This document shows, one piece after another, positions 4,376 through 27,746 of a stretch of 64,000 nt of DNA (positions are counted from its first letter, which is position 1; each line of letters begins with the position of its first letter). Source of the DNA: Bryobacterales bacterium (GTDB lineage Bacteria; Acidobacteriota; Terriglobia; Bryobacterales; UBA6623); contig CBDFIK010000006.1 in the NCBI GenBank assembly GCA_965248105.1, positions 259,761 to 323,760 on the forward strand, given 5' to 3'. The notes under the pieces were generated by a model that worked only from the letters and a program-made list of their open reading frames with translations, was not told where the DNA came from and ran no database searches. Position numbers and translations under genes: made by a program.

Positions 4376-4377
4376 TG

Positions 4378-4549
4378 GCCGGCCGCAGTGGAGCAAGGCC
4401 CCGCTGTTCGAGATGTAGGGGCGCGATTGATCCCGCCCGCTTGCCTTACCAACTGTAAGCCGGACGATGTACACAAACTGTCGCCGCGAGCCATAGCCAC
4501 CGGGCTTTTGGCCCCCAATCGCAGTGACAGTGGTGAGAAAAGCGGGCTA
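4378..4549. repeat. dispersed REP-containing repeat, empty allele
   Basis: Aligns with 16817-16933 plus 17122-17177. Contains GTAGGGGCGCGATTGATCCCGCCC and ends TGGTGAGAAAAGCGGGCTA. Confidence 0.8.
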
Positions 4550-5426: not shown

Positions 5427-6582
5427 TAGTGTAGTGCCACTAACGGTTCTGGACAATGGCGTGGGTTTTGGCGGCGCGCTCGACTTTGGCGAGGATATCT
5501 TGTGCCGGAGCTGTCCAGACAAAGGGCTTGGGCGCTTGGTTGCTCGCTTCCAGGTACTCGTGGATGGCGGCCTCGAGTTCGGGAACACTGCGGAACACGC
5601 CGCGGCGGAGGCGCTTCTGTGTCAGCTCGCGGAACCAGCGCTCGACGAGATTGAGCCAGGAAGAAGACGTGGGAATGAAGTGAAAGTGGAAGCGGGGGTG
5701 CTTCGCGAGCCACTTCTTCACCTGCTCATGCTTGTGCGTGGAGTAGTTGTCCACGATCAGATGCAGCTCCAGCGCCGGTGGTGTTTGGCGGTCGATCTGG
5801 CGTAGGAATTTGAGGAATTCCTGGTGCCGATGTCGCGGCAGACACTCCCCGATCACCTGGCCGTCGCGCACATTGAAGGCGGCGAACAGCGTCGTTGTGC
5901 CATGTCGTTTGAAGTCGTGGGTCATGGTGCCGGCACGACCCTTTTTCAGGGGCAGTCCCGGCTGGCTGCGGTCTAAGGCCTGGATCTGGCTTTTCTCATC
6001 GACACTGAGCACCAGCGCGTGCTCGGGCGGATTCAAGTACAGACCGACCACGTCGCGGAGTTTCTCGACGAACTGCTTGTCGCGGCTGAGCTTGAAAGTT
6101 TCGAGGCGATGGGGCTGCAGTCCGTGCGCTTTCCAGACGCGCTGGATGGCCATCTTGGAGACGCCCAAGTGCTTGGCGAGGGTGCGGGTGCTCCAATGCG
6201 TGGCCGCCCGGGGCTTCTCGTGAAGTGTTGTATTGAGGATGCCTTGGACGAATTCAGCGGAGAGCGCCGGTTTGCGTCCGGGGCGCGTCTGATCGCGGAG
6301 TCCGTCGAGGCCGGACTGGGCGAAGCGCTTTCGCCACAGGATGACGGTCTTGCGGTTGACGCCGAGTCCGCGGGCAATGGCGTGGTTCGCCAACCCCTGC
6401 GCACAGCGCAAAACAATGTGCGCTCGCAAGACCATTTTCTGCCTCGTATTGCGGCCTCGAACGAGGCGACGAAGAGCGTTTCCCTGCGGAGCGGTGAGGG
6501 GTAGAGCGTCAGCGGATGGCCACACAAACCATCCTACCGCGAAAGGGTGTTATTGTCCAGTTATTTATGTGGCACTACACTA
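5427..6582 (-). mobile_element. IS630-family insertion sequence, copy 1
   Basis: Ends TAGTGTAGTGCCAC and GTGGCACTACACTA. TA duplicated at 5427-5428 and 6581-6582 in a CTAG context. Confidence 0.95.
5440..6525 (-). CDS. IS630-family transposase (HTH + DDE), intact single ORF
   Basis: HWSTRTLA, DEKSQIQAL, IVDNYSTHK, SSWLNLVERWF motifs; 361 aa. Confidence 0.95.
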   Translation of the reverse strand: MWPSADALPLTAPQGNALRRLVRGRNTRQKMVLRAHIVLRCAQGLANHAIARGLGVNRKTVILWRKRFAQSGLDGLRDQTRPGRKPALSAEFVQGILNTTLHEKPRAATHWSTRTLAKHLGVSKMAIQRVWKAHGLQPHRLETFKLSRDKQFVEKLRDVVGLYLNPPEHALVLSVDEKSQIQALDRSQPGLPLKKGRAGTMTHDFKRHGTTTLFAAFNVRDGQVIGECLPRHRHQEFLKFLRQIDRQTPPALELHLIVDNYSTHKHEQVKKWLAKHPRFHFHFIPTSSSWLNLVERWFRELTQKRLRRGVFRSVPELEAAIHEYLEASNQAPKPFVWTAPAQDILAKVERAAKTHAIVQNR

Positions 6583-6713: not shown

Positions 6714-7640
6714 CTACGCAGCCAGAGCCTGCTTGCAGTACTCGAAACACTTGCGCACTTCCGCGACGGTGTCGTCGCCGTCGTACTCGTATTCGATATT
6801 GGCGGGGATCCTGTATCGTTTTTCGCGCAGCAGGGCCAGGACTTCCCGGATCGGCGTATCGCCTTCTCCGAAAGGCACGTTGGCGCCCTGGTCGCGCTTA
6901 CGATCCTTGATGTGCAGGGTCAGGATGTCGTCGTGGTGCTTGTCGAGGTAGTCGACGGCGTCGAAATTCGCGGCGGTGAAGTGGCCGATATCCAAGTTAA
7001 TAGCGATGTAGTCGGAGTTTCCCTTGCGGGCGCGGGCGAAGTCATCCGGCGTGGCGAACTCGTTTTCTCTGATGTTGGAGTGATTGTGCATCCCCACGCG
7101 CGTCTTGTATTTCTTGGCATAGGGATCGATGCGGCTTGCGGTGTTGACGTTCGCCGAAGCGGTGATGACCTTGGCGCCGAGCGCTTGAGCCATCTCAAAG
7201 CCGCGCTCGATTTCGGCATCGGTGAAATCATCCTTGAAACTGTAGTTGTAGGCGTAGACGTCAATGCCGGCGTCCCGAAACTTCTTGCCCACGGCTTCGA
7301 ATTCCTCGAGTGAAACAGAAAGCCGCCATTGACGCAGCTCCTCGCGGCTTTTTTTTGGAGACCCACCGAATCCTCCTTCCAAGTGCCCGGACGCGACCTC
7401 ACAGGAGCCAATGCCGATATCGGCAATCGCTTGGATGGCTTCGTCCAGCGAACGATCCCGGAAGCTATAGCTCTGCACGCCGATCAACACCCCGTTGAAC
7501 GTGGAATCGATCATTGGAGTAGGTGGGGTGCCCTCGGTTGGGGCCGGTTCGCTCTCGGGACTGGACTCGCAACGAGCCAGAAGCAAGCCTCCTACACCGG
7601 ACAGCGAGAGTGCTCCGAAACGTCTTCGGTTAATCGACAT
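6714..7640 (-). CDS. sugar phosphate isomerase/epimerase-family TIM barrel protein, probably TAT-exported
   Basis: MSINRRRFG twin-arginine-like leader; GVQSYSFR, GMHNH, NLDIGH, LHIKD, NIEYE metal-ligand motifs. Confidence 0.85.
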   Translation of the reverse strand: MSINRRRFGALSLSGVGGLLLARCESSPESEPAPTEGTPPTPMIDSTFNGVLIGVQSYSFRDRSLDEAIQAIADIGIGSCEVASGHLEGGFGGSPKKSREELRQWRLSVSLEEFEAVGKKFRDAGIDVYAYNYSFKDDFTDAEIERGFEMAQALGAKVITASANVNTASRIDPYAKKYKTRVGMHNHSNIRENEFATPDDFARARKGNSDYIAINLDIGHFTAANFDAVDYLDKHHDDILTLHIKDRKRDQGANVPFGEGDTPIREVLALLREKRYRIPANIEYEYDGDDTVAEVRKCFEYCKQALAA

Positions 7641-7863
7641 GTCTTATCTCCCCTAGGGTCTTGGCAATCCCACACGCGCCTACCCGGCGGATCTGAGCCC
7701 GCGCCGGGCTGCGCGCCGCCGGCAGCACCAAATGCCTACTTTACGATGCGAATCGCGGATCGGCGAGTGGCATCATAGCGCAGTTACGGAACCGAGGGCT
7801 ACTAGGTTCACTTTCCATAACTCCGATACAGTAAGAAGGCCGGCACGGGCCAGATGAAGAGAC

Positions 7864-8805
7864 ATGAAAAGCGCTCTAGTCACAGGCGGGGCCGGGTTCA
7901 TCGGATCGGCGCTGGTGCGAGGTTTGTTGTCCCGGGAAGACGTAGAGCGGGTTGTCGTGGTGGATAACTTGCTGACCGGCAGCGAGGCCAATCTTTCGCA
8001 AGTCGGTGACTCGATTGAATTCCATGTTGCCGACACCCGCGACCTGGAGGCGATGGAGGGCCTTTTCCAGGGCGTAGACGTTGTCTTTCATCAGGCGGCG
8101 ATCCCGTCCGTACCGCGGTCGATCGCGGAGCCCGACCTCACCCACGACGTCAACATCAATGGGACGTTCACCGTGTTCCGAGCAGCCCAAAAGACCGGGG
8201 TCCGCCGTGTTGTCTACGCGGCGTCCTCGTCGGCCTACGGCGATCAACCCGATCTGCCCAAAAAAGAATCGATGCTGCCTAGCCCTCAGTCACCGTACGC
8301 CGTTCAGAAGCTGGTTGGCGAGTATTACGCGCGGATTTTTTGGCAAGTTCATGATGTCGAGACGGTTTCGCTGCGCTACTTCAATGTTTTTGGGCCGCGC
8401 CAGGACCCCTCTTCCCCCTATTCCGGGGTCTTGTCGCTGTTCTGCACAGCACTTCTCGAGCGACGCCAGCCGACGATCTTCGGTGACGGCGAACAGTCTC
8501 GCGACTTCACTTACGTGGACGACGTCGTGCAGTTGAATCTTCTCGCGGCGGATTCTCCCGGAGCTCCTGGGAACGTTTACAACGGCGGGACGGGGAGCCG
8601 CCGCACCTTAAATAAGGTGTGGGCCCTCCTGCAGAAGATCGAGAGTGTCCAGATCACTCCAACCTACGGGCCACCTCGTGTGGGGGACGTGAAGCATTCC
8701 CAGGCTGACTTGACTTCCGCCCGCCGGGACCTGGGTTATGAGCCGCGGGTTAGCTTCGAAGAGGGGCTCAGGCGTACGCTGCAGTGGTACCGCGAAACCA
8801 GGTAG
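7864..8805 (+). CDS. NAD-dependent sugar epimerase/dehydratase (extended SDR, GalE/WbpP-like)
   Basis: TGGAGFIGS, FHQAAIPSVPRS, YAVQK, YFNVFGPRQDP, RDFTYV. Confidence 0.9.
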   Translation: MKSALVTGGAGFIGSALVRGLLSREDVERVVVVDNLLTGSEANLSQVGDSIEFHVADTRDLEAMEGLFQGVDVVFHQAAIPSVPRSIAEPDLTHDVNINGTFTVFRAAQKTGVRRVVYAASSSAYGDQPDLPKKESMLPSPQSPYAVQKLVGEYYARIFWQVHDVETVSLRYFNVFGPRQDPSSPYSGVLSLFCTALLERRQPTIFGDGEQSRDFTYVDDVVQLNLLAADSPGAPGNVYNGGTGSRRTLNKVWALLQKIESVQITPTYGPPRVGDVKHSQADLTSARRDLGYEPRVSFEEGLRRTLQWYRETR

Positions 8806-8859
8806 AAAACCCAGCGTGATAGATTGCGTCATGCTTCCTGAGATGAAAGCTGGGCTTCG

Positions 8860-10440
8860 ATGAGTCACTTCGCACCGCTTGCCGAGGTGTTGCTTCGGCA
8901 CCCGCTTCCTTTCTTTTTAGTGTTGCAGGCGGGCCTACTTTTCTACCGCATCGATCTGCTGCCCGTTTGGGGTGACGAGCAGTTCACCCTGAACGCGGTC
9001 GCCCGGCCGTGGACCGAGATCCCGAGCGCTCTGGCAGCCGACATCCACCCTCCGCTCTACTATTTCTTGACCAAAGCCTGGATCGCACTGCCCTGGCCCG
9101 GCTCACTTCTGACGCAGGTACGCGCGCTTTCCGTTGCGTGGGCTCTTCTGTCCACGGTCCTGTTTTGTTTCTTGTGGCTCAGGAACAGCAGCCGTTCCAC
9201 GAGAGTGTGGTTTTTGGCCCTGTGGAGCCTTTCTCCTGCCCTAGTCTTGTACTCGCGCATGGCGCGTTCCTACAGCTTGCAAGTGTTGTTGAGCTGTTTG
9301 CTCTTGTGGCTGGCGGTGCGGTGGACCAGGGAACCGATGCAGAAGAGGCTGCTGGCTGCCTACACGGCCGTCGCGACTTTGCTCTTGTACACCCACTATT
9401 TGCCCGGGTTGGCGATCGTCGGAGCCGTGAATCTGTTGCTGCTGGCACGCTGCCTGCGACATTGGAAATGGCACGTGCTGGCACCGCTTGCGGCTTCAAA
9501 CCTGTTACTGGCGGCGCTCTACGCGCCGTGGCTACCCTTCCTGAGGGCTGCCATGACACGTGTGTTCACAACCGAGTCGTACTCGCTGGTGGATAGTGCT
9601 GCCGTTGAACCAGCTTTGCGCCTGGCCTTCAGCTTTGTCTCTTTCACGTACGGAGAATCGATTTCCGTTTGGGGTCTTGCGGCCGGGCTGTTGATCGGTC
9701 CCCTCGTCGGTTGGATGGTCTGGCGTGGCGCGAACAGCTCTCCGGGATGGCTGGTTGTCGTGGGACTCTCTGCCGCGATTGCCTACCTGGGCGCTACGGC
9801 ATGGGTGAGCGTGCCCTTTACACCGGCACGGATGCTGTTTCTGCTGCCGTTTTACCTTCTCTTGCTCGTGCGCGGGAAAGAACGGAAGCCGCGACTGGGT
9901 CTGGCTGTTTGCAGCGGTGTCTTGCTTGTCGGCATGAGCTCACTATGGAGTTACTTCCACAAAGCCAACTTCCTTAACAAAGGGTACGTACTGCCGTTTG
10001 AAGAGATGGCGGCGTACGTGAAGGGCCAACCTGAGGCCGACAGCGCTCTGATTTTGGTGGATCGGTGGAACAGTGACCCCCAGCCCTTCCTAGCGGCGCT
10101 CGGCGATCGCTTCTCCCCCCTGTTGATCTACGGGGAGAAGTCTGTGCGGAAAGTGCGTGAGCGCGTTCTGCACGATCGGCCGCACAGGATCTGGTATCTG
10201 CGCAATACTCACGACATCTCGCCTGACTCCCTAAACAAAAGGCTGGAGGCGGAGCTAGCTGCCACGTATGACGGCCAACGTCATTTGTTCCTCCCTTATT
10301 CGCCGCTCGATCGGTTAGCCGCACAGCTACTGGGTGACAAGAACCCACCAACCCATCACTATCAGGTGCTCGAGCTGCGCCGGCGAGGCAACGAAGCATC
10401 TTCAGAAGGTGGCGCCCTTAGGGAACCGATCCCGCCATAG
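8860..10440 (+). CDS. multi-TM GT-C fold glycosyltransferase (GT39/PMT_2/ArnT-like)
   Basis: VWGDEQFT, DIHPPLYY, YSRMARSYSL, YTHY motifs and many hydrophobic helices. Confidence 0.75.
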   Translation: MSHFAPLAEVLLRHPLPFFLVLQAGLLFYRIDLLPVWGDEQFTLNAVARPWTEIPSALAADIHPPLYYFLTKAWIALPWPGSLLTQVRALSVAWALLSTVLFCFLWLRNSSRSTRVWFLALWSLSPALVLYSRMARSYSLQVLLSCLLLWLAVRWTREPMQKRLLAAYTAVATLLLYTHYLPGLAIVGAVNLLLLARCLRHWKWHVLAPLAASNLLLAALYAPWLPFLRAAMTRVFTTESYSLVDSAAVEPALRLAFSFVSFTYGESISVWGLAAGLLIGPLVGWMVWRGANSSPGWLVVVGLSAAIAYLGATAWVSVPFTPARMLFLLPFYLLLLVRGKERKPRLGLAVCSGVLLVGMSSLWSYFHKANFLNKGYVLPFEEMAAYVKGQPEADSALILVDRWNSDPQPFLAALGDRFSPLLIYGEKSVRKVRERVLHDRPHRIWYLRNTHDISPDSLNKRLEAELAATYDGQRHLFLPYSPLDRLAAQLLGDKNPPTHHYQVLELRRRGNEASSEGGALREPIPP

Positions 10441-10555: not shown

Positions 10556-11560
10556 ATGTCTGAAACAGGAACCAAGGTCGCATCGGGGACAGAGGCTGGA
10601 GAGAAGGCCATCTATCTCTTGAAACCCCGTGGCTTTTGCGCCGGCGTAGTCCGAGCGATTGATATCGTAGAGTTGGCGCTCAAGGTTTACGGGCCCCCGA
10701 TTTATGTCCGCAAGGAAATCGTCCACAATCGTCATGTTGTGAACGATCTGGCGAGCCGGGGAGCTGTCTTTGTCGACGAGCTGAGCGAGGTACCCGCCGG
10801 GCGTCGCGCGGTTTACAGCGCGCACGGTGTCGCTCCCGAGGTGCGGCGGGAGGCAAGTGAGCGTGGGTTGGATGTCATTGATGCGACCTGCCCCCTGGTA
10901 ACGAAAGTACACTTGGAGGCCGTCCGCTTCGCGCGCCAGGGGGGAACGATTCTATTGATCGGACACCGTGACCACGACGAGGTCATCGGCACAATGGGGG
11001 AAGCCCCGGATCGCACGATTGTCGTCTCCACGGCCGAGGAGGCGCAGACGGTTCAAGTGCCTGATCCGGAGAAAGTTTGCTATCTGACGCAAACGACCTT
11101 GAGTCTGGACGAAGCGAACGTTATCATTACTGAACTGAAGAAACGCTTTGCGAATATGGAAGGTCCCCCAGCCCAAGACATCTGCTACGCTACCGAGAAT
11201 CGTCAACAGGCGGTCAAGAGGGTCGCACCACGTTGTGACTTGCTGCTCGTCGTCGGATCGCAAAACAGTTCCAACTCACGCCGCCTGGTTGAGGTGGGAG
11301 AGAATTTGGGCGCCCCCGGCTATCTGATCGACGATGAGATCGACCTGGATGCTCGCTGGTTCGAGGGCGTCAAGACCGTTGCCGTGACCGCCGGCGCCTC
11401 CGCGCCCGAATCTTTAGTGCAGCGCGTAATTCATCACCTTTCTCGATTCGGCTTTGCCCGGGTTGAAGAGGTCGAAGTCATTGAAGAGGACGTAAAATTC
11501 TCCCTTCCGCCGGAGCTGGCGCCCTACGAGGGTGAACTGACGCAGATCGCGAACCTATGA
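10556..11560 (+). CDS. ispH: 4-hydroxy-3-methylbut-2-enyl diphosphate reductase
   Basis: PRGFCAGVVRA, EIVHN, SAHG, DATCPLVTKVH, ICYATENRQ, NSSNS, TAGASAP. Stop overlaps the shc start (ATGA). Confidence 0.96.
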   Translation: MSETGTKVASGTEAGEKAIYLLKPRGFCAGVVRAIDIVELALKVYGPPIYVRKEIVHNRHVVNDLASRGAVFVDELSEVPAGRRAVYSAHGVAPEVRREASERGLDVIDATCPLVTKVHLEAVRFARQGGTILLIGHRDHDEVIGTMGEAPDRTIVVSTAEEAQTVQVPDPEKVCYLTQTTLSLDEANVIITELKKRFANMEGPPAQDICYATENRQQAVKRVAPRCDLLLVVGSQNSSNSRRLVEVGENLGAPGYLIDDEIDLDARWFEGVKTVAVTAGASAPESLVQRVIHHLSRFGFARVEEVEVIEEDVKFSLPPELAPYEGELTQIANL

Positions 11561-13526
11561 CGCGTGCCAATCGCGCCGCCCTCGCCGCCACTGCCGTCGC
11601 TCGCGCCCCGGCCGAGCAGCCTCTGCCGCAGGTCGAGGATGCGATCGACCGGGCCACCCGCCACTTGCTATCCCTTCAGGCTCCCGAGGGCTACTGGGTG
11701 GCCGAGCTGGAAGCCGACACCACCCTGCAGGCTGACTACATTCTGCTGCAATTGTGGCTTTATCCCCCTGAGCCCGACGGTATTTGGAATCCTCCAACTC
11801 GTTCCCGAGTGAATAAGGCGGCGCGCCAGATTCTTTCTCGCCAGTTGCCCGGGGGCGGGTGGCAGATATACCCCGGGGGAAGCGCGCACGCCAACGCCTC
11901 AGTTAAGTCCTATGTGGCTCTCAAGATCGCGGGCTTGCCTGATTGCGATGCGGCGCTCGAGAAGGCCAAGCGAAAGATCCTCGAGCTCGGTGGCGTCGAA
12001 GCGGCATATAGCTACATCAAGATCTATCTGAGCTTCTTCGGGCTTTATGATCGCGAGAAGACGCCGACGATTCCTCCTGAACTCTTCTTGTTGCCGAAGA
12101 AGGCGCGCTTCAACATCTACGACATGTCGTCGTGGACTCGGACGATGATAGCGCCGCTGGCTATCTTGACCGCTCTGCGAGCGTCGCGGCCGATCCCCGC
12201 CGGCCTTGAGATACGCGAGATCATCACGGGAAAGGAACCGCCAAAGCCGGAATTCTTTAGTTGGCGCAACCTACTCATGTGCGTCGATGAGGGCTTGAAG
12301 CTTTGGGAAAAGAGAGGCTCTTGGCTGACCCGCAGAAAGGCCATCAATGCGACGAAGAAATGGATGTTCGAGCGCCTGGAGAACTCGGATGGGTTGGGGG
12401 CTATTTTCCCCCCTATGATGAATTCCATTATGGCGCTCACAGAGCTGGGCTATGGCCTCGACCACCCGCTGCTGAAAAGGGAAATCGAAAAGTTCGACCA
12501 GTTGCTTGTCGAGGAGGATGATGTCCTTCGTGTGCAGCCCTGCCTGTCGCCGGTGTGGGACACGGCCATCGGCTCCTACGCCCTAGGATCGGCAAACCCG
12601 GAGCCGGACGCCGAAGTCACAGCCGCACTCCGTCGGGCAGCCGATTGGCTGCTCACGAAGGAGGTCCGCCACTATGGCGACTGGTCGGTGAAGAACGACA
12701 AAGCTGCGCCCGGAGGCTGGTACTTCGAGTTCTCGAACGAGTTTTACCCAGACACGGACGACACCGCCAAGGTCCTTCTTGCGATGCAATACGCTCGCGC
12801 CCGAGACCAACAAGCCCAGCGAGCTGCCGAACAACGGGCGGTCGCGTGGCTGCTGAGCATGCAATCAAAGGATGGCGGCTGGGCGGGGTTCGACGTGGAT
12901 AATGACAATCACTACCTAACTTACCTGCCCTTCGCCGACCACAACGCGATGCTGGACCCGACTTGCGCCGACGTCACTGGCCGAGTCCTGGAGGCCTTGT
13001 GTCGCGTGGGACCCGGTAGACACCATCCCGCGGTCTGGCGAGGCGTCGAATACTTAAAGAATAGCCAGGAGGAAGACGGCAGCTGGTCGGGTCGCTGGGG
13101 CGTGAACTACATTTATGGAACGTGCTTCGCGTTGCGAGGTCTGCGCGCTGCTGAAGAGGACGAGCGCGAACCCTACATCATCCGTGCGGGCGAGTGGCTG
13201 CGATCCATCCAGAACGCGGACGGCGGGTGGGCGAAACCTGTGCCAGCTATGACGATCCCCGCTTGAAATCGGAAGGCGAAAGCGCCCCCTCGCAAACCGC
13301 CTGGGGGCTGATGGGACTTTTCGCCAGTGGAGACTATCGCAGCGACAGCGTAGAGGCCGGCATTCAATACTTATCGTCGAATCAGAACGCCGACGGCTCG
13401 TGGGACGAAGATGCTTGGACCGGAACGGGATTTCCGCGGGTCATCTATTTGAGGTATCACCTTTATGGGCAATATTTCCCGCTGATGGCGCTAGGAGCTT
13501 ATAAAGACTGGCTGCGGGGTCAGTGA
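11557..13526 (+). pseudogene. shc: squalene-hopene cyclase split by a 1-nt deletion (sequencing error or recent inactivation)
   Basis: DTDDTA catalytic motif, QW repeats (QSKDGGW, QEEDGSW, QNADGGW, QNADGSW), RWGVNYIYGT. The frame switches at TGGG 13228-13231, where W-G-E-T-C needs TGGGG. Confidence 0.9.
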
Positions 13527-13685
13527 CGACACTGGGTAGCCCATTGACTTCCGCTCTCGCCCTTTCGCTTCCATGACCCTTCCGTCCGCTGGAACCGGAC
13601 GCCAGGTCCTGAGAAACGTTGATCCGCGGACATCAGTCTGAGCTGGAACGCGGCTAGTCGACAATGCTCTCCGGCACCGTATCTA

Positions 13686-14414
13686 ATGGCTTCAAGGCGC
13701 CGAGTGCTTCTCGTGGTCTCCGGGGACCGGCGAGAGTTGGCGGGATTCGGGGAACCCGACAACGGCCTTGCTCCGTTCTCGTTCGGCGTCCGGTGGAGCG
13801 CGTGGGCGAATCTGAACGGCCGACAGGCTCTATTGGTCGCCAATGGGCCGGGGCGCGAAAACGCCGCCCAAGGAGTCGAATCTGCTTGTAAGAGTTTTGA
13901 CGTGGGCGCGATTGTGTCCGCCGGTTACGTCGGGGCGCTGGACCCGGAGCTGACAGTCGGATCGACTCTGATCGTGCGGCGCATCATACAGCTCAACCCG
14001 CGCCTAGAGTATGCTGTAAGGTTGCCCGTGTGCTCGGGGGAGCTGCGACCCAGAGTGGCTGCGCTAGTGACAATTGATGAAGTCGCACAAGATGCTGACA
14101 GCAAAGCCCAACTCCGAGTCACGGGTGCAGCCGCGGTAGACATGGAAGCCTCGGCCGTGGCGGCGGAAGCGGCGAGGCGGGATCTGCCATTTTATTGCTT
14201 GCGTGCTGTCAGCGACGAGGCTGATACCTCTTTGATCATGGACTGGAATAGCGCCCGGCGATCGGACGGTACGTTCTCAGGCTGGCGCCTCTTAGCTCAG
14301 GCGGCCGCGCATCCCCGGCATTGGAGAAAATTGCACGTGCTCCGACGCGATGCGCAAAGGGCTTCGGCGGCGCTCGGACGGCTGTTTCAACACTGCCGCT
14401 TTGATTTCGACTAG
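13686..14414 (+). CDS. hpnG: hopanoid-associated nucleoside phosphorylase
   Basis: PNP/UDP phosphorylase motifs (SAGYVGAL, AVDMEASAVA, LRAVSD), directly downstream of shc. Confidence 0.75.
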   Translation: MASRRRVLLVVSGDRRELAGFGEPDNGLAPFSFGVRWSAWANLNGRQALLVANGPGRENAAQGVESACKSFDVGAIVSAGYVGALDPELTVGSTLIVRRIIQLNPRLEYAVRLPVCSGELRPRVAALVTIDEVAQDADSKAQLRVTGAAAVDMEASAVAAEAARRDLPFYCLRAVSDEADTSLIMDWNSARRSDGTFSGWRLLAQAAAHPRHWRKLHVLRRDAQRASAALGRLFQHCRFDFD

Positions 14415-14434
14415 CATCTGATTTCAACCAGCTT

Positions 14435-15532
14435 ATGATAAGTGCTCCTGAAGCGGCGGTCCCCGATGCCATGGCGGCATCGGTATACCGCGGAAACAGT
14501 CGCCTGCAACTGGAGAGACTTACCGTTCCCGAGATCGGGCCGGGCGAATTGCTGGTCAGGGTCGAGGCTTGCGGCATTTGCCACACTGACCTCAAGAAGA
14601 TCGAATACGACCTGCTTGCGCCGCCACGCATCTATGGGCATGAGACGGCGGGGGTTGTCGTTTCCGTTGGCCAGGACGTCGGAGGCTTTGTCCCGGGGGA
14701 GCGCGTTTGCTTGTTTCATCACGTTCCCTGCCTCGATTGCTTTTATTGCGAAAAGGGTGACTACGCGCAGTGCGCGACGTACAAACGCGTCGGGGTGACA
14801 GCCGGATTTGAACCGGCGGGTGGCGGCTTCGCGCAATACGTTCGAGTCATGGACTGGATCGTTCGGCGCGGGGTTATCCGCATCCCCGAAGGTGTGGGCT
14901 TTGACCGCGCCAGCTTCGTGGAACCGGTCAACACCTGCATGAAGGCGCTTGCGAAATGCCGGGTGACGCCCGAGGAAGTGGTTCTGGTGATGGGGCAAGG
15001 GCCGATCGGACTGATTTTCACCTGGCTGCTCGCGCAAATGGGTGTCGAGAGGGTGTATGCCACGGATTTGATACCGGCGCGGCTGGAGACGTCGCGATGC
15101 CTCGGAGCTCGAGAAGCGTGGAATGCCTCCGCGACTGATTTCATCTCCGAGATCCGCGGGTTGACCCACGGCCGGTGCGCTGATCTGGCCGTAGTCGCGG
15201 CCTCGGCTCCTGGAATCGTTGAGCAGGCCCTCACGGCATCCCGGCCCGGCGGGCGCGTGATGTTATTCGCTCAAACTTCGGCCAAGGAGACTTTCGAGTT
15301 GAACGGCGACGCGCTGTGCACGGAAGAACGAAGCGTGTTTGGCTCTTATAGCGCCTCGGTCGATCTGCAGCAGGAGTCGGCCGAGCTGGTCTGGCGGAAC
15401 GACTTCCCCGTGGAGGAATTGGTTTCTCATCGCATTGGACTTGATGAGATAACGCGCGGCATCGAAATGGCTCGTCGTCCTACCAATGGTTCGCTAAAGT
15501 TGATTGTGCACCCGCAGAGGTATTCATCGTGA
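14435..15532 (+). CDS. Zn-dependent medium-chain dehydrogenase 1 (polyol/threonine dehydrogenase-like)
   Basis: CGICHTD, GHETAG, CxxCxxC-x7-C structural Zn site, EPVNT, GQGPIG. Confidence 0.9.
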   Translation: MISAPEAAVPDAMAASVYRGNSRLQLERLTVPEIGPGELLVRVEACGICHTDLKKIEYDLLAPPRIYGHETAGVVVSVGQDVGGFVPGERVCLFHHVPCLDCFYCEKGDYAQCATYKRVGVTAGFEPAGGGFAQYVRVMDWIVRRGVIRIPEGVGFDRASFVEPVNTCMKALAKCRVTPEEVVLVMGQGPIGLIFTWLLAQMGVERVYATDLIPARLETSRCLGAREAWNASATDFISEIRGLTHGRCADLAVVAASAPGIVEQALTASRPGGRVMLFAQTSAKETFELNGDALCTEERSVFGSYSASVDLQQESAELVWRNDFPVEELVSHRIGLDEITRGIEMARRPTNGSLKLIVHPQRYSS

Positions 15533-16572
15533 AACAGAAAATGCTAGCCGCGGTCCTCTATGGCGAGGAAGAGCTCCGTGTGGAACCGGTCGCCTTGCCG
15601 CGGATTGGGCCTTCCGACGTTTTAGTAAAGGTTCGGGTGGCGCTTACTTGCGGTACGGACCTGAAAGTGTTCCGGCGGGGATATCATGCTCGCATGATTC
15701 AGCCTCCGGCGATTCTGGGTCACGAGTTGGCTGGGGATATCGTCGCCGTCGGCTCGGAGGTACAGGACTTCCGCACCGGGCAGCGGGTCGTGGCGGCGAA
15801 CTCGGCGCCCTGTTGGAACTGTTACTACTGTCGGCACAAGCAAGAGAACCTCTGCGAAAATCTGCTGTTTAACAATGGCGCTTACGCGGAATACGCGCGC
15901 ATTCCCGGCCCCATCGTCCGCTGCAACACCCATGAGGTTCCCGAAGGTATCGATTACCGGGACGCGGCTTTGATCGAGCCGCTGGCTTGCGTATTGCGGG
16001 CACTAGAGGCTACACAGGTCCGCGTGGACGACACCCTGGCCGTGATGGGGCTCGGTCCGATCGGGCTCATGTTTGTTCGCCTGGCGAAGCTCAAGGGTGC
16101 CCGTGTGCTCGCCGTAGGCCGTCGTCAGACACAGTTGGACCGCGCTGAGCGGATGGGGGCGGACGAGCTCGTTTTGGCGGAGCCTGGAGCCGACCCCGTC
16201 AAAGCCGTTCGGTGCCTGACAGGCGGGTCTCGCGGAGCTGACATCGTGATCGAAGCGGTCGGCGCCCCCGAAACCTGGCAAGCAGCAGTCGCGATGGTTC
16301 GCAGCGGAGGCATTGTCAATTTGTTCGGCGGTTGTCCCTCCGAAAGTACTATTTCGGTGGACACATCCCAGATTCATTACTCGGAAATCACGCTGCAATC
16401 GAGTTTCCACCATACGCCGACCCACATCTTGAAAGCCCTGGATATCATTTGCCGAAAGCAGCTACAGGCTTCCGACTTCGTGATTGATGAGGCTCCTCTT
16501 GCGGATCTCCTGCGAGTCTTCCGGCAGATGATGAGCCACAACGGCCACCTGAAAACCGCGATTCTTCCGTAG
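15529..16572 (+). CDS. Zn-dependent medium-chain dehydrogenase 2 (polyol/threonine dehydrogenase-like)
   Basis: TCGTD, GHELAG, CWNCYYC-x7-C, EPLAC, GLGPIG. Its start overlaps the stop of dehydrogenase 1. Confidence 0.9.
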   Translation: MKQKMLAAVLYGEEELRVEPVALPRIGPSDVLVKVRVALTCGTDLKVFRRGYHARMIQPPAILGHELAGDIVAVGSEVQDFRTGQRVVAANSAPCWNCYYCRHKQENLCENLLFNNGAYAEYARIPGPIVRCNTHEVPEGIDYRDAALIEPLACVLRALEATQVRVDDTLAVMGLGPIGLMFVRLAKLKGARVLAVGRRQTQLDRAERMGADELVLAEPGADPVKAVRCLTGGSRGADIVIEAVGAPETWQAAVAMVRSGGIVNLFGGCPSESTISVDTSQIHYSEITLQSSFHHTPTHILKALDIICRKQLQASDFVIDEAPLADLLRVFRQMMSHNGHLKTAILP

Positions 16573-16796
16573 ATTCGGTCGCGCCAGGTCGGGCGGCTTG
16601 CCGGCCCAGCGGATTTCTCTCTGCCGTCCGCGGCAGTCCCACTTGAACCGCGCGGGGCGCCTGCGCGGTAATGTCATAGTGGAATGCCGGCCGACAGAAG
16701 GGAAGGCAGGCGGGGGCGAAGCCGCTCCGCGAGCTGTGTGCGGAGTTGCTCGCGGCTGTTTCGACCTGCGCCCCTCGACGAGGAAATTCCACCGGC

Positions 16797-17177
16797 CCCA
16801 GCCCGCCTTTCTCGCCAGCGGCCGGCAGCAGTGGAGCGAAATCCTCGCCGCTTGAGATGTAGGGGCGCGATTCATCGCGCCCGCTTGCCGGCATACTGTA
16901 CGCTGGGCGATGTGCACAAAGTTTTGCCGCTAGCCCGTATTTCTCACGACAAACCAGTAGGGGCGGGCCGCTGCGCCCGCCCAGAGAGGCTCTCGCGGGG
17001 TTGGGTTGGGTGATCGAATGGGACGGAGTGCGCATCTTACAAATGGGCGGACACGGCGGTCCGCCCCTACAAATAAAGTCCGTTCAACGCCGGTCGTCCG
17101 AACGCTCGTGAGAAATGCGGGCTAGCCATGGCTACCGGTCCCTTCGCCCCAATCGCAGTGACAGTGGTGAGAAAAAC
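16797..17177. repeat. outer REP-containing repeat carrying the MITE insertion (filled allele)
   Basis: Ends AGCCCGCCTTTCTCGCCA and TGGTGAGAAAAACCGGCT are imperfect inverted repeats; homologous to 4378-4549 outside the insert. Confidence 0.7.
16930..17125. mobile_element. MITE-like element with ~20-bp TIRs, CTAG at both ends and an internal REP doublet
   Basis: CTAGCCCGTATTTCTCACGA ... TCGTGAGAAATGCGGGCTAG. Homologous copies at 47817-48008 (inverted) and 55994-56316. Confidence 0.85.
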
Positions 17178-17219
17178 CGGCTCGCCGTTCAGCAGTCCGC
17201 CAGGCAATGAGGCTCCGAG

Positions 17220-18185
17220 GTGAAGCGCTTCTTACAACCGGCTGAATTCAGCGAAGTCTATGGGACAGACAACCTTCGGGCCTGGCCCCTGGGCGATTCG
17301 CTTGCCTACACGCGCTGGTTAGCGCAGGTTCACTACGAGAACTTTCACGTTGTCAGTTTGTTGTTGCCCCGTCGCCTGCGCCAGGATTTTCGCAACGTCT
17401 ACAGTTTTTGTCGCTGGTCGGATGACCTGGGCGACGAAATCGGAGATCCTCAGCGCAGCCTCGAGTTGCTGGAGTGGTGGAGCGGCGAGCTGAAGGCCAT
17501 GTATCAAGGTGCCGCCCGGCATCCCGTGTTCGTCGCCCTGAAGCAGACCGTCGAGACGCACGGTATCCCGGAGCAAACGTTCGCTGACTTGATTCATGCT
17601 TTCGTCCAGGATCAGCGCATGACCCGCTACACCACGTATGCGGACCTGCTTGGCTACTGTCGCTACTCAGCCAACCCGGTGGGCCGGCTTGTGCTGCATT
17701 TGTGCGGCTACACGGACGAGCCGCGAAGACAGCTTTCCGACAGTACCTGTACGGCCCTACAGCTGGCGAACTTCTGGCAGGACGTCGGCCGCGATTGGAA
17801 GAAGGGCCGTGTCTATATCCCTCTGGAGGATATGGACCGTCACAGCTACTCGATCGAGAATCTGGAAGATGATCTGAAGCAAGGGGTAGCTCGTCCCGCT
17901 TTTCGCAACCTCATGCGAGAGCTGGTCGACCGGACTCAGGAACTTTTTCAAAAAGGGCTTCCCCTGGTTGATCTTGTCGGCCGGCGGCTCTCGATCGATG
18001 TGGAATTGTTCAGCCGGGGAGGCCTGGCGATTCTGGAGATGATTCGCCGGCAAGACTACGACACCGTGGCGCGGCGGCCGACGTTGGAAAAGTGGGATCG
18101 CTTCAAGCTCCTTTCGCGAGTTGTCAGCCGGCAGATCCTCGGCCGTCCCCGGCTGAAGGGGACCGCAGAACATGCCTACCGTTGA
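17220..18185 (+). CDS. hpnC: squalene synthase HpnC
   Basis: HYENFHV, RWSDDLGDE, YCRYSANPVGR, ALQLANFWQDV, GRVYIP. Confidence 0.92.
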   Translation: MKRFLQPAEFSEVYGTDNLRAWPLGDSLAYTRWLAQVHYENFHVVSLLLPRRLRQDFRNVYSFCRWSDDLGDEIGDPQRSLELLEWWSGELKAMYQGAARHPVFVALKQTVETHGIPEQTFADLIHAFVQDQRMTRYTTYADLLGYCRYSANPVGRLVLHLCGYTDEPRRQLSDSTCTALQLANFWQDVGRDWKKGRVYIPLEDMDRHSYSIENLEDDLKQGVARPAFRNLMRELVDRTQELFQKGLPLVDLVGRRLSIDVELFSRGGLAILEMIRRQDYDTVARRPTLEKWDRFKLLSRVVSRQILGRPRLKGTAEHAYR

Positions 18186-19053
18186 CGAATCGTTTGCCTA
18201 CTGCCGCCGGGTTGCGCGTTCGCGAGCGCGCAATTTCTACTATTCGTTTGTTCTGCTGCCGCGGGAGCAAAGAATGGCCATGTGCGCGATTTACGTCTTC
18301 ATGCGCTATAGCGACGACATCAGCGACGAGCCCAACCCGTCGCCGGCTTCGCGGCGGGCGGCTCTTGCTCGCTGGAAGACAGCCTTCGAGGATGCGTTGC
18401 AGGGCCGATACGGGAACGACCCGATCCTGCCGGCCTTTCATCACACGGTGGTGAAGTACCAAATCCCGGAGCAGTATTTCTTCGAGCTCATCGCCGGCGT
18501 AGGCAGTGATCTGGTCCCCCAGCGCCGGCGAACATTCGACGACCTCTACCGCTACTGCTACCAGGTGGCTTCGGTGGTCGGCATGACCTGCGTCCACGTC
18601 TTCGGCTACGACTCGCCCGAGGCTCTCAGACTGGCGGAAAAATGCGGCGTCGCCTTTCAGCTCACCAACATCCTGCGCGACATACCCGAGGACGCGCGCT
18701 TGGGCCGTGTGTATCTGCCGGAAGAGGATTTGGAGCGCTTTGGCCTCGGTCCCCAGGACTTGATGGAGAACCGCAGCGGCGCGCGGTTCCGCGACTTGAT
18801 GGAGTTCGAGTGGAGCCGCGCCAAGCGCTACTACGAAGAGGCGGCGCCCTTGTTGACGATGGTTCGTCCACAGAGTCGCCCGGCACTGTGGGCCATGATC
18901 TCGATCTACTACGGGATTCTGCGGCGCATTCGCCAGTCCGACTACGATGTGTACGCCAAGCGGGTCAGGCTCAGCGACTTTGAGAAAGTCCGCATCGTGC
19001 TCCAGGCGCTGAAACTTCGATTCACAGGAGGAGCGCCTCCATTCCCCGCGTAA
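18172..19053 (+). CDS. hpnD: presqualene diphosphate synthase HpnD
   Basis: ARNFYYSF, RYSDDISD, YCYQVASVVG, AFQLTNILRDI, GRVYLP. Confidence 0.9.
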   Translation: MPTVDESFAYCRRVARSRARNFYYSFVLLPREQRMAMCAIYVFMRYSDDISDEPNPSPASRRAALARWKTAFEDALQGRYGNDPILPAFHHTVVKYQIPEQYFFELIAGVGSDLVPQRRRTFDDLYRYCYQVASVVGMTCVHVFGYDSPEALRLAEKCGVAFQLTNILRDIPEDARLGRVYLPEEDLERFGLGPQDLMENRSGARFRDLMEFEWSRAKRYYEEAAPLLTMVRPQSRPALWAMISIYYGILRRIRQSDYDVYAKRVRLSDFEKVRIVLQALKLRFTGGAPPFPA

Positions 19054-20318
19054 TCATCGTCGGCGGAGGGCTGGCGGGCTTGTCCGCCGCGGCTGCTCTG
19101 GGATCGCTCGATTTTGACGTCGAGCTGCACGAAGCCCGACCGTTTCTGGGCGGTCGAGCTACCTCCTTTCCCCTGCAGCCGGCGGAGGAAGATTCCGAGC
19201 GCATCGACAACTGCCAACACGTGCTGCTGCGCTGCTTTACCAACTTGTTGGACTTCTACCGGCGCTGCGGGGTGGAGAAGAAGATTCGCTTCGACGACCG
19301 GCTGTATTTTGTTCGCCCGGGGGGCAAGACCGACATCCTCCGGCGGAGCTTTCTGCCGGCGCCGTTTCACCTTTTCAGCTCGCTAATTGGGTTTGGCGGC
19401 CTCGACGCCCGCGACAAGTGGTCGCTCATTCGAACGCTCGCCGCCTTGCGGAGCGAGCGTCATCGAGCAGACCTCGACCGGCTTACGATGGGACAATGGC
19501 TCTCCTCGAAAGGCGCCACGCAACGCACTTGCGAGCGTTTCTGGCGTCCTATCCTGGTAAGCGCACTCAACGAAGAGCCCGAGCGCGCATCTGCGGCGCT
19601 TGCTTTTCACGTTTTTCTCGATGGGCTGATGGCAACCCGCGACAGTTTCGAAATCGGTGTGCCAGCTGTGCCATTAGCGGACCTATACTCCACGGCCTTC
19701 GAGCAAGGGCTTGGGTCCGGGGTTCGCATTCACTTGCGCTCAAGTGTCGAGCGAATCGATCCTGCCGACCGCCAAGCGGACTTTTACATCAGTGCCGTGC
19801 CTTTCGAGCGAGTGAACGCTTTGGTTCCGGGACTCGATCTGCGCCTCGGGCGTTTCGAACATTCACCGATCACGGGCATCCACCTTTGGTTCGACCGTCC
19901 GATTACCGAACTCCCCCATGCGGTGCTCCTCGATCGCACTCTACAGTGGCTATTCCGCAAATCCGAGAACTATTTTCAGGCCGTGGTCAGCGCGTCACGC
20001 TCCCTGTTGCCGTTGGCGCAAAAAGACATCGTCGAGATGGCATGTCGCGAGCTGCGAGAGTTTTTCCCCGAGTCGGCGAATGCTCAACTGATCAAATCGC
20101 GCGTGATCAAGGAAGCGCGCGCGACCTACTCCGCCGTCCCCGGGCTCGAGGCTGCAAGGCCGGGAGCCAAAACGAAGTTTCCGAATGTCTTCCTCGCGGG
20201 TGATTGGACAAACACCGGCTGGCCCGCCACGATGGAAGGCGCAGTCCGCAGCGGTTACCTTGTGGCGGAAGCGGTGGCGCACGCAGCGGGGACGGAGGCG
20301 TCGTTCCTCGTTCGATAA
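19041..20318 (+). CDS. hpnE: hydroxysqualene dehydroxylase HpnE (FAD-dependent)
   Basis: GGRATSF, IDNCQHVLLRC, LAGDWTNTGWPATMEGAVRSG. The FAD motif VIIVGGGLAGL lies upstream of the track start (19080), so the start is placed at the in-frame ATT 19041. Confidence 0.88.
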   Translation: MPRVIIVGGGLAGLSAAAALGSLDFDVELHEARPFLGGRATSFPLQPAEEDSERIDNCQHVLLRCFTNLLDFYRRCGVEKKIRFDDRLYFVRPGGKTDILRRSFLPAPFHLFSSLIGFGGLDARDKWSLIRTLAALRSERHRADLDRLTMGQWLSSKGATQRTCERFWRPILVSALNEEPERASAALAFHVFLDGLMATRDSFEIGVPAVPLADLYSTAFEQGLGSGVRIHLRSSVERIDPADRQADFYISAVPFERVNALVPGLDLRLGRFEHSPITGIHLWFDRPITELPHAVLLDRTLQWLFRKSENYFQAVVSASRSLLPLAQKDIVEMACRELREFFPESANAQLIKSRVIKEARATYSAVPGLEAARPGAKTKFPNVFLAGDWTNTGWPATMEGAVRSGYLVAEAVAHAAGTEASFLVR

Positions 20319-27390: not shown

Positions 27391-27746
27391 GGACGTCGAT
27401 CCCGCTTCTAAAGCGAAGCGCTACGTCACGCACTCAGGTTGTCACGACCGCCCATGTCTTCCACCCACAACCAGGGGCACATGGCCCCGATGACCGACCC
27501 CGAACGGGTGAACTCGTACATCATCCGACACCTGGCCCGCTTTTCTCACGGGGGGTTTGGATGGCCGGCGTCGAACGAACGTTATTAGTGGGGCGTGCCA
27601 CCGTGTCCGCCCGTCGGAGTGGCGCCTATGTCCCGGTCTGCTCACTAGCCAGACTAGCCCCGTTGCAAGGTGAAAGGGTCGTTTCAAACTTAGAACAGAA
27701 GCAAGCGGGTCGGGCCTAATGCGCTTTTCTCAGCAAGGCCCCTGTC

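Follow-up and report, generated by a model that had tools for sequence, protein, structure and literature searches.

Among the core steps of C35 hopanoid biosynthesis, one is still without an enzyme, the reduction of ribosylhopane to bacteriohopanetetrol (BHT). A preliminary description of the locus analyzed here made the same observation, and it holds for the literature to 2026, with papers of 2017, 2025, and 2026 stating that none is known. The activity itself was detected in cell-free extract of Methylobacterium organophilum (Bodlenner et al. 2015, as cited in PMC12583986), and no protein is known to have been assigned to it. BHT occurs in nature as 34R/34S and 22S isomers, and the stereochemistry of its side chain is used by geochemists as a biomarker; no genes have been assigned to these isomers or to the setting of that stereochemistry.

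The closest described system is the hopanoid gene cluster of the Acidobacteria, in which Sinninghe Damsté et al. (2017, Front Microbiol 8:968, PMC5462960) reported two genes, ug1 and ug2, with a function 'not established'. In that study ug1 is a Zn-dependent ADH of ~370 aa that follows hpnA-hpnG, and ug2 is a Zn-binding ADH of ~350 aa that precedes hpnC-hpnD-hpnE. Both were reported from SD1, SD2, and SD3 Acidobacteria, with ug2 found throughout the surveyed SD1 and SD3 genomes that produce hopanoids and missing from the hopanoid producer C. thermophilum. The two genes were assigned to two separate clusters (C and A), ug2 being grouped with hpnCDE, and for the formation of BHT from ribosylhopane hpnA was put forward as a candidate, not ug1 or ug2. 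The proposal that ug1 and ug2 reduce ribosylhopane was not found in the literature searched.

The two dehydrogenase genes at the center of this analysis, termed MDR1 and MDR2, match these definitions in size and placement, with MDR1 (365 aa) 20 bp after hpnG and MDR2 (347 aa) 647 bp before hpnC, and they match the reported occurrence in SD1/SD3 (Terriglobia) loci with conserved hpn synteny. MDR1 is ug1 and MDR2 is ug2, and their association with hopanoid clusters has thus been published since 2017. What is added here, at the level of sequence, is that the two form an obligate, apparently coupled tandem, that their cofactor fingerprints differ, and that the pair also occurs in the Armatimonadota and in stand-alone positions.

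Gene order and gene models of the locus

The locus belongs to a member of the Bryobacterales (Acidobacteriota), and the window is the whole 64-kb stretch of its DNA that was analyzed, in which the genes are ordered ispH-shc-hpnG-MDR1-MDR2-hpnCDE (Table 1). The flanking families score above or near their equivalog cut-offs, and the pair lies inside an shc-hpnG...hpnCDE locus, as first described. TIGR03468 (HpnG) is the top NCBIfam match of the hpnG-like ORF at 121.6 bits, below the curated cut-off of 187.1, and from this family match and its position the product would probably convert adenosylhopane to ribosylhopane. Orthologues of this gene in relatives come after hpnH-hpnA; tblastn across the whole 64-kb window recovered no homologue of either hpnH or hpnA, and hpnH had already been placed outside it by the earlier reading.

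Table 1. Features of the hopanoid locus, in positions of the window
Feature	Coordinates	Strand	Basis
ispH (HMBPP reductase), opens the conserved locus	10556..11560	+	NF002189, 458 bits vs cut-off 444
shc (squalene-hopene cyclase)	11557..13526	+	TIGR01507, 533 bits
hpnG-like nucleosidase/phosphorylase	13686..14414	+	TIGR03468 best NCBIfam match; PNP_UDP_1 domain
MDR1 (= ug1), Zn-MDR	14435..15532	+	ORF, 365 aa, ATG start
MDR2 (= ug2), Zn-MDR	15529..16572	+	ORF, 347 aa, GTG start
Dispersed repeat in MDR2-hpnC spacer	16767..17175		Spacer alignment, copies in window, contig depth
hpnC (squalene synthase HpnC)	17220..18185	+	TIGR03464, 341 bits vs cut-off 250
hpnD (presqualene diphosphate synthase)	18172..19053	+	Best match TIGR03465, 257 bits, just below cut-off 278.6
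hpnE (hydroxysqualene dehydroxylase)	19080..20318	+	TIGR03467, 421 bits vs cut-off 283

The TGA of MDR1 and the GTG of MDR2 share 4 nt. The alignment with homologues is conserved in MDR1 only from Met13, so translation may really begin at the ATG at 14471, in which case the spacer to hpnG would be 56 bp. Metatranscriptome contigs span both genes, and a 1.87-Mb ENA contig encodes a protein (P0121) identical to MDR2.

Upstream, shc is split into two ORFs (11557-13266 and 13194-13526) by a run of G that is one G short at ~13228. The gene is intact (656 aa) in two relatives (L088 and L089), and contigs of four independent runs carry the extra G behind 13228; the frameshift therefore stems from misassembly or from a minor variant, and the reading that it marks a dead pathway was rejected.

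A scan of the locus for promoters and terminators gave none above shuffled expectation. An Rfam scan of 13400-17400 gave a single match, Termite-leu, at 27 bits against 51, which falls within the dispersed repeat and was treated as noise. The spacer between MDR2 and hpnC is 266 bp in L089, and the two spacers align at both ends only. Further copies of the repeat lie in the window at 4377-4548, 27532-27612, 47817-48008, and 56178-56315, and its contig depth is 20-50x above that of the flanks, with many loose ends. The repeat is an insertion and lies outside the enzyme module.

Domains, zinc sites, and cofactor motifs of the two dehydrogenases

The preliminary description of MDR1 and MDR2 as divergent, overlapping Zn-MDR genes is borne out by a mutual identity of 30% and by the Pfam domains ADH_N and ADH_zinc_N, which score 88.1 and 65.2 bits in MDR1 and 89.3 and 85.3 bits in MDR2 (cut-offs 23.5 and 31.8). 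The catalytic-zinc ligands (Cys46/His69/Glu70/Glu163) and the structural-zinc Cys4 site (C99/C102/C105/C113) of MDR1 are invariant in 88 sequences, as are the corresponding residues of MDR2 (Cys41/His65/Glu66/Glu150 and C95/C98/C101/C109) in 79 sequences. All three glycines of the GxGxxG motif are kept in 88/88 sequences of MDR1, and those of MDR2 in 79/79, 79/79, and 78/79. With these zinc sites intact, both proteins read as catalytically competent Zn-dependent dehydrogenases. Both are under purifying selection, with dN/dS against a 90%-identical relative of 0.20 for MDR1 and 0.07 for MDR2.

In MDR enzymes an acidic residue where Rossmann strand beta-2 ends goes with NAD and a Gly-Arg-Arg at that position with NADP. 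MDR1 has Asp211 there (87/88 sequences) and MDR2 has Gly197-Arg198-Arg199 (75-77/79 sequences), a motif found likewise in the MDR2 orthologues of the Armatimonadota and of locus L081. The MDR2 of a remoter hpn-linked pair (L087) carries an NAD-type acidic residue instead. By this fingerprint, MDR1 would prefer NAD and MDR2 NADP, an assignment that comes from the motifs alone.

The AF2 models have pLDDT values of 86 (MDR1) and 86.5 (MDR2), and a Foldseek search with the MDR1 model gave TM-scores of 0.78-0.87 to MDR structures, the top match being an uncharacterized Zn-dehydrogenase (4EJ6). MDR1 has its fold in common with sorbitol dehydrogenase (1PL6/1E3J), L-threonine 3-dehydrogenase (2D8A/3GFB), and galactitol-1-phosphate 5-dehydrogenase (4A2C), with TM-scores of 0.78-0.86. 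Both proteins share with this branch the Cys-His-Glu catalytic zinc, the structural Cys4 zinc, and GxGxxG, but differ from it in an identity of 19-27% and, in MDR1 alone, in a family-specific insert, TAGFEPAGGGFA, after the zinc lobe. Searches for a substrate clue with NCBIfam, PDB sequences, and Foldseek (MDR1) returned generic MDR matches in that same range of identity. MDR1 and MDR2 fall far short of every NCBIfam equivalog cut-off, among them those for L-threonine 3-dehydrogenase (TIGR00692, 139.8 and 158.1 bits against 458.35; NF003808, 139.9 and 155.7 against 380) and for the scyllo-inosose 3-dehydrogenase IolM (NF041097, 142 and 145.8 against 450), and human and sheep SDH and whitefly ketose reductase scored no more than 93-124 bits, their identity in Foldseek being 23-25%. 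The nearest characterized relatives, which use polyol-type substrates, are dehydrogenases or reductases of threonine, sorbitol, galactitol-1-P, and ketoses, and the term polyol-dehydrogenase-like is apt for both proteins as polyol/threonine-dehydrogenase-type Zn-MDRs. JGI labels homologues L-iditol 2-dehydrogenase, which is an automated KO assignment.

Conservation of the tandem and its hpn neighborhood

Homologues of MDR1 and MDR2 number in the hundreds at 57-94% identity, and the best 80 genome loci are nearly all from Bryobacterales, Solibacteraceae, and other Terriglobia MAGs with conserved synteny. An SD1-like version was seen in 80 metagenome loci in a scan with a 4-sequence alignment. 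Relatives that are full-length and at least 40% identical are scarce; their sources are Acidobacteriota, Armatimonadota, a cyanobacterial-type contig, and metagenome contigs. A check of mid-range MDR relatives for model hopanoid producers returned mostly metagenome or archaeal sequences.

Synteny was surveyed in 169 related loci, with each count taken over the loci testable for that feature. MDR2 immediately follows MDR1 in all 148 of 148 loci, the stop and start overlap in 105 of 162, and the spacer is at most 20 nt in 147 of 162; MDR1-MDR2 is, as far as gene arrangement can indicate, an obligate, translationally coupled tandem. This arrangement lends support to the idea, raised at the outset, that the two proteins form a hetero-oligomer. 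An hpnG-like gene lies immediately 5' of MDR1 in 127/152 loci, and MDR2 is followed by hpnC/D at a distance of at most 1.2 kb in 118/128, which is the co-occurrence with hpn genes, here at the level of the locus, on which the original proposal depended. The canonical order across relatives is ispH-shc-hpnH-hpnA-hpnG-MDR1-MDR2-hpnC-hpnD-hpnE, with ispH conserved 5' of shc in most loci. Stop/start overlaps also join the pair to its hpn neighbors, on the hpnG side in L089 and on the hpnC side in L087. Chance co-location would not readily account for a placement between hpnG and hpnC that is fixed in well over 100 loci of at least two phyla.

The pair is nonetheless restricted in lineage. A study of 48 genomes, in its account of the hpn clusters of Alphaproteobacteria, noted no gene of this kind within them. 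With the pair absent from these clusters and from C. thermophilum, it cannot be a universal ribosylhopane reductase, an enzyme that would be expected in all BHT makers with HpnH/HpnG. The M. organophilum activity corresponds to the reaction proposed for the pair, of which MDR2 has an NADP-type motif, but the lack of an MDR candidate in alphaproteobacterial hpn clusters makes it probable that the enzyme there is another protein. The proposal that MDR1 and MDR2 are candidates for ribosylhopane reduction thus survives in part: it is plausible and the link to the hpn genes is strong, while the role of a general reductase falls away.

Possible roles of the pair

The reading favored here, tentatively, is that MDR1 and MDR2 constitute a coupled, possibly heteromeric, redox module that follows HpnG and tailors the C35 side chain derived from ribose. 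Once HpnG had removed adenine, the pair would act on the side chain, with MDR2 (NADP-type) using NADPH to reduce a carbonyl, most economically the open-chain C-35 aldehyde of ribosylhopane to give BHT, and MDR1 (NAD-type) oxidizing a C-34 or C-35 hydroxyl or hemiacetal. The output could be BHT itself, or interconverted redox states or stereoisomers of the side chain. Such a module would be a lineage-specific solution, confined to the Terriglobia and a few other lineages. Ribosylhopane reduction to BHT in M. organophilum is reportedly NADPH-dependent, and a plausible fit to a reaction of that kind is offered by the Gly-Arg-Arg of MDR2 together with the hpnG synteny. A more specific form, possible but doubtful, is an obligate hetero-oligomeric Zn-MDR of NAD and NADP subunits that carries out the post-HpnG step in the Terriglobia, either as BHT formation or as inversion of a hydroxyl through a keto intermediate.

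Several observations count against a side-chain reductase. The conversion of ribosylhopane to BHT would need one reductase, yet two enzymes are present, and BHT is still made where the pair is missing from the hpn clusters (Alphaproteobacteria) or ug2 is missing (C. thermophilum). Polyol-dehydrogenase-type MDRs usually attack a secondary C-2 hydroxyl and not the C-1 of an aldose. To these are added the split loci in which the pair is often linked to hpnCDE and not to hpnG, the pairs that stand without hpn genes nearby, and the degenerate zinc sites of one of the latter (the L172 pair).

The conserved placement of the dehydrogenases between hpnG and hpnCDE makes them a concrete, clonable candidate for the formation of BHT. 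Should they act on the side chain, the gap in the pathway would be filled, at least in the Acidobacteriota, and a heteromeric MDR working on a membrane lipid would be a rarity; should a post-HpnG hetero-oligomer be correct, it would supply the first gene for the step and a genetic marker of BHT stereochemistry for soils and peat. If the pair does not act on the side chain, a tempting annotation by guilt of association can be dropped.

An unlikely alternative is that the pair is a general dehydrogenase module for a soluble polyol, sugar, or amino alcohol, merely co-located or co-regulated with the hopanoid genes in the Terriglobia. It draws on the L-iditol 2-dehydrogenase label of the family and on orthologous pairs at ~40% identity (L171, L172, and L173, one on a marine TARA contig and two on other metagenome contigs) whose surrounding 4-10 kb hold no hpn genes, but these contigs are short (7-23 kb) and hpn genes may lie elsewhere in the same genomes. 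One related pair adjoins the housekeeping gene queF and another a threonine-aldolase-like gene; as functional partners, both were judged coincidental neighbors. A soluble substrate is also suggested by a 602-aa relative (P0256), 37% identical, that is fused to a sugar-1-phosphate nucleotidylyltransferase. Against this alternative stand the hpnG-hpnC placement across well over 100 loci, the overlaps with hpn genes in L089 and L087, and the retention of the family in all hopanoid-producing SD1 and SD3 genomes surveyed.

Slightly less likely is an epimerase couple, in which MDR1 (NAD+) would oxidize a secondary hydroxyl of BHT and MDR2 (NADPH) would re-reduce it from the other face to yield a BHT stereoisomer. 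This would account for two enzymes that are always paired and for their complementary NAD- and NADP-type fingerprints, would agree with closest characterized relatives that oxidize a C-2-type hydroxyl of polyols, and would give a source for the natural isomers that have no assigned genes. It is weakened by the NAD-type residue in the MDR2 of the hpn-linked L087 pair and by the literature, where searches on BHT-34R, BHT stereoisomers, and intact BHPs of Acidobacteria found nothing useful, and so no acidobacterial stereoisomer data. An example of a target hydroxyl is that at C-34, which adjoins the terminal CH2OH, as in the substrates of sorbitol or ribitol-5-P dehydrogenases.

A role with HpnCDE at the squalene/isoprenoid end of the pathway, where the pair would change the oxidation state of, for example, an isoprenoid alcohol or aldehyde instead of the C35 side chain, is improbable. 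In its favor are the nearness of hpnC/D, the grouping of ug2 with hpnCDE by Damsté et al. (PMC5462960), and the loci that have the pair and hpnCDE without hpnG (an Armatimonadota MAG, L085; L087; and the SD1-like L104, L135, L146, L155, and L166). Against it are the chemistry of HpnC, HpnD, and HpnE, which is complete without an added dehydrogenase (Pan et al. 2015, as described in a citing paper), a Bryobacterales subgroup in which the trio hpnG-MDR1-MDR2 stands alone amid unrelated genes with no hpnCD within 10 kb, and nearest characterized relatives that are polyol and hydroxy-acid dehydrogenases, not MDRs of the cinnamyl or geraniol type.

The P0256 fusion was also considered as a Rosetta-stone link to HpnG, which was rejected on the identity of the fusion partner. 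BHT is formally 5-deoxy-5-hopanyl-D-ribitol, and the TarJ-type ribulose-5-phosphate reductase, a Zn-MDR of CDP-ribitol synthesis, interconverts a pentulose and a pentitol that carry a bulky C-5 substituent. The logic of TarI/TarJ resembles the fusion in P0256, a likeness by description only, and the substrate of TarJ is a sugar phosphate, whereas the hopanoid substrate is a lipid.

Conservation and integrity of the MDR1-MDR2 tandem

The best-supported reading of MDR1 and MDR2 (ug1 and ug2 of Sinninghe Damsté et al. 2017) is that of a co-translated, possibly heteromeric redox module for hopanoid biosynthesis in the Terriglobia and a few other lineages. The features reported in the preliminary description all hold. 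The spacer between the hpnG stop and MDR1 measures 20 bp, and the GTG start of MDR2 overlaps the TGA stop of MDR1 by 4 nt. Identity between the two proteins is 30%, and neither hpnH nor hpnA was found by tblastn with the relatives' HpnH and HpnA across the whole 64 kb. Homologue conservation in MDR1 begins only at Met13, and the true start could therefore be the ATG at 14471.

Features of the locus and its surroundings (window positions)
Feature	Position	Strand	Remark
DDE_3/IS630-type transposase gene	5440-6525	-	close to locus
Xylose-isomerase-like TIM-barrel gene (AP_endonuc_2)	6714-7640	-	upstream of ispH
TviC-like SDR sugar epimerase gene	7864-8805	+	upstream of ispH
Membrane protein, 526 aa	8860-10440	+	no Pfam match; weak Agl23/GT-C-like match only
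ispH	10556-11560	+	first gene in order
shc	11557-13526	+	after ispH
hpnG-like, PNP_UDP_1 domain	13686-14414	+	after shc
MDR1, Zn-dependent MDR, 365 aa	14435-15532	+	after hpnG-like gene
MDR2, Zn-dependent MDR, 347 aa	15529-16572	+	after MDR1
Dispersed repeat, ~200-400 bp	16767-17175		inserted in MDR2-hpnC spacer
hpnC, hpnD, hpnE	17220-20318	+	after MDR2
Further copies of spacer repeat	4377-4548, 27532-27612, 47817-48008, 56178-56315		

A species-level scan (one genome per species) identified no fewer than 589 related loci, of which the 80 best are almost all from Bryobacterales, Solibacteraceae or other Terriglobia MAGs. A further 80, of an SD1-like type (~50% identity), came from a metagenome scan that used remote relatives as seeds. 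The canonical order is ispH-shc-hpnH-hpnA-hpnG-MDR1-MDR2-hpnC-hpnD-hpnE. Counted over loci L001-L169, MDR2 is the immediate downstream neighbour of MDR1 in all 148 loci with sufficient sequence for the test. The stop codon of MDR1 overlaps the start of MDR2 in 105/162 (gap ≤20 nt in 147/162), an hpnG-like ORF directly precedes the pair in 127/152, and hpnC/D follow MDR2 within 1.2 kb in 118/128. Based on these counts, the MDR1-MDR2 pair is the invariant unit of the locus. Where the locus is split, the pair is found either with hpnG, as in a Bryobacterales subgroup with the trio hpnG-MDR1-MDR2 amid unrelated genes (permease, two-component systems, recA), or with hpnCDE and no adjacent hpnG, as in several SD1-like loci, an Armatimonadota MAG and contig L087. 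The clade of the window (relatives 90-94% identical) has ispH-shc-hpnG-MDR1-MDR2 without hpnH-hpnA at this locus; for a complete C35 pathway, both must be encoded at another site in the genome.

Both genes are real and look active. Each has hundreds of homologues (57-94% identity), and dN/dS against a 90%-identical relative (MDR1 0.20, MDR2 0.07) is like that of ispH, hpnC and hpnE. Coverage by contigs of an environmental metatranscriptome extends to shc, hpnG and both MDR genes. None of the 88 MDR1 or 79 MDR2 sequences departs from the catalytic zinc ligands or the four structural-zinc cysteines, the GxGxxG glycines are kept in all but one MDR2, and the AF2 models of both proteins are confident (pLDDT 86).

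Predicted cofactors and family comparisons

In the cofactor FINGERPRINTS, 87 of 88 MDR1 sequences carry Asp211 where Rossmann strand beta-2 ends. The same strand end in MDR2 reads Gly-Arg-Arg in 75-77 of 79 sequences, among them the orthologues from Armatimonadota and L081, and two remote MDR2 orthologues have an acidic residue there. Under the established MDR rule, NAD preference goes with an aspartate such as Asp223 in horse liver ADH, and NADP preference with a motif such as Gly-Ser-Arg in Thermoanaerobacter ADH; by this rule MDR1 would prefer NAD and MDR2 NADP. None of the family comparisons points to a substrate. All NCBIfam equivalog models (Tdh, IolM, GatD, idonate dehydrogenase, others) scored far below their cut-offs, the best PDB sequence matches reached only 117-145 bits, and Foldseek with the MDR1 model returned an uncharacterised Zn-dehydrogenase, butanediol dehydrogenase, RspB, and threonine and sorbitol dehydrogenases at 19-27% identity. 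The homologues' label 'L-iditol 2-dehydrogenase' is automated.

Candidate role in side-chain reduction

The module's most likely target is the ribose-derived C35 side chain that results from HpnH and HpnG. In the simplest chemistry, MDR2 (NADP-type) would convert ribosylhopane in its open-chain form to bacteriohopanetetrol (BHT) by reducing the aldehyde at C-35, and MDR1 (NAD-type) would oxidise a side-chain hydroxyl or hemiacetal. A side-chain redox role of the pair is a tentative proposition at somewhat less than even chances, and it is rather unlikely that the pair includes the actual ribosylhopane reductase. The earlier proposal of ribosylhopane reduction is partly supported, as a plausible and testable candidate role.

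The association of these genes was already in print in 2017, with ug1 described as a Zn-dependent ADH (~370 aa) after hpnA-hpnG, and ug2 as a Zn-binding ADH (~350 aa) before hpnC-D-E, reported from every SD1 and SD3 acidobacterium and absent from Chloracidobacterium thermophilum (Sinninghe Damsté et al. 2017, PMC5462960). The same authors gave the function of both as 'not established' and tentatively put forward hpnA for the conversion of ribosylhopane to BHT. In 2025, a survey covering 48 alphaproteobacterial hpn clusters described the enzyme of this step as not established and reported no new candidate genes nearby, a 2026 review lists the step without an assigned enzyme, and no proposal of ug1 or ug2 for it was found in the literature searched. 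The present analysis adds the obligatory order and coupling of the tandem, the contrast between the two cofactor motifs, the Armatimonadota occurrence and the stand-alone pairs, and a long-open pathway gap becomes accessible to direct experiment.

An exhaustive representative search found few full-length relatives ≥40% identical outside the acidobacterial family. Orthologous A+B tandems lacking any hpn gene within 4-10 kb occur on a marine TARA contig and two further metagenome contigs, so either the tandem predates the hopanoid association or the hpn genes of those genomes lie elsewhere. These stand-alone pairs weaken a purely hopanoid reading and strengthen the idea of two proteins acting as a unit; one cyanobacterial relative is unpaired. 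Among the stand-alone pairs, the remote one at L172 (1986-4090) has degenerate zinc sites: its MDR1-like member lacks the cysteines for structural zinc, and the catalytic Cys is gone from its MDR2-like member, losses that would fit a heteromer whose subunits specialise or decay. A soluble-polyol module merely co-located with hopanoid genes would agree with the stand-alone pairs, less so with the conserved hpn linkage, and is unlikely. An epimerase couple working via a keto intermediate, also part of the earlier proposal, would suit the tandem and is distinctly improbable. A role tied to HpnCDE, compatible with the split loci that retain hpnCDE and less so with those that retain hpnG, is very doubtful. 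The pair cannot be a universal ribosylhopane reductase, as BHT producers outside these lineages have no such pair in their clusters.

Neighbouring genes and mobile elements

The shc gene is split into two ORFs by a GGGG run (13225-13232) that is one G short. A pseudogene was considered and rejected, since shc is intact (656 aa) in relatives and contigs from four independent public runs, one a metatranscriptome, carry a G inserted behind 13228; the split is a homopolymer assembly error or minor variant. The shc-hpnG gap (13527-13685) is only ~160 bp in the window and its close relatives L088 and L089, while most Terriglobia (e.g., L002, L037) have hpnH and hpnA there. The MDR2-hpnC spacer is 647 bp here versus 266 bp in L089. 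In four runs the spacer repeat has a contig depth 20-50x above its flanks and many loose ends, with a sub-threshold Rfam match inside it (Termite-leu, 27 bits), and it is possibly a MITE or REP-like element.

On one Bryobacterales chromosome (L016), a xanthine/NCS2 nucleobase permease gene (6824-8662, minus strand) lies shortly upstream of an hpnG-MDR1-MDR2 trio set apart from the other hpn genes. It is of note because HpnG frees adenine, though the placement may be coincidence. The representative search also gave protein P0256 (602 aa), which comes from outside the window. In it a sugar-1-phosphate nucleotidylyltransferase domain is joined to an MDR 37% identical to MDR1, resembling the TarI/TarJ logic of nucleotide-activated pentitol synthesis. 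The three genes upstream of ispH (6714-10440) keep that position in L088 and L089, and PMT_2-like membrane proteins plus an AP_endonuc_2 gene occur near the pair in marine contig L171 and Armatimonadota locus L085; the upstream genes may form a module for hopanoid glycosylation, or their placement may be coincidental. In L088 a different IS (rve family) lies between the membrane-protein gene and ispH, and hpnCDE has been lost from behind MDR2. Together with the IS630-type gene near the locus, this points to rearrangement of the region by IS activity.
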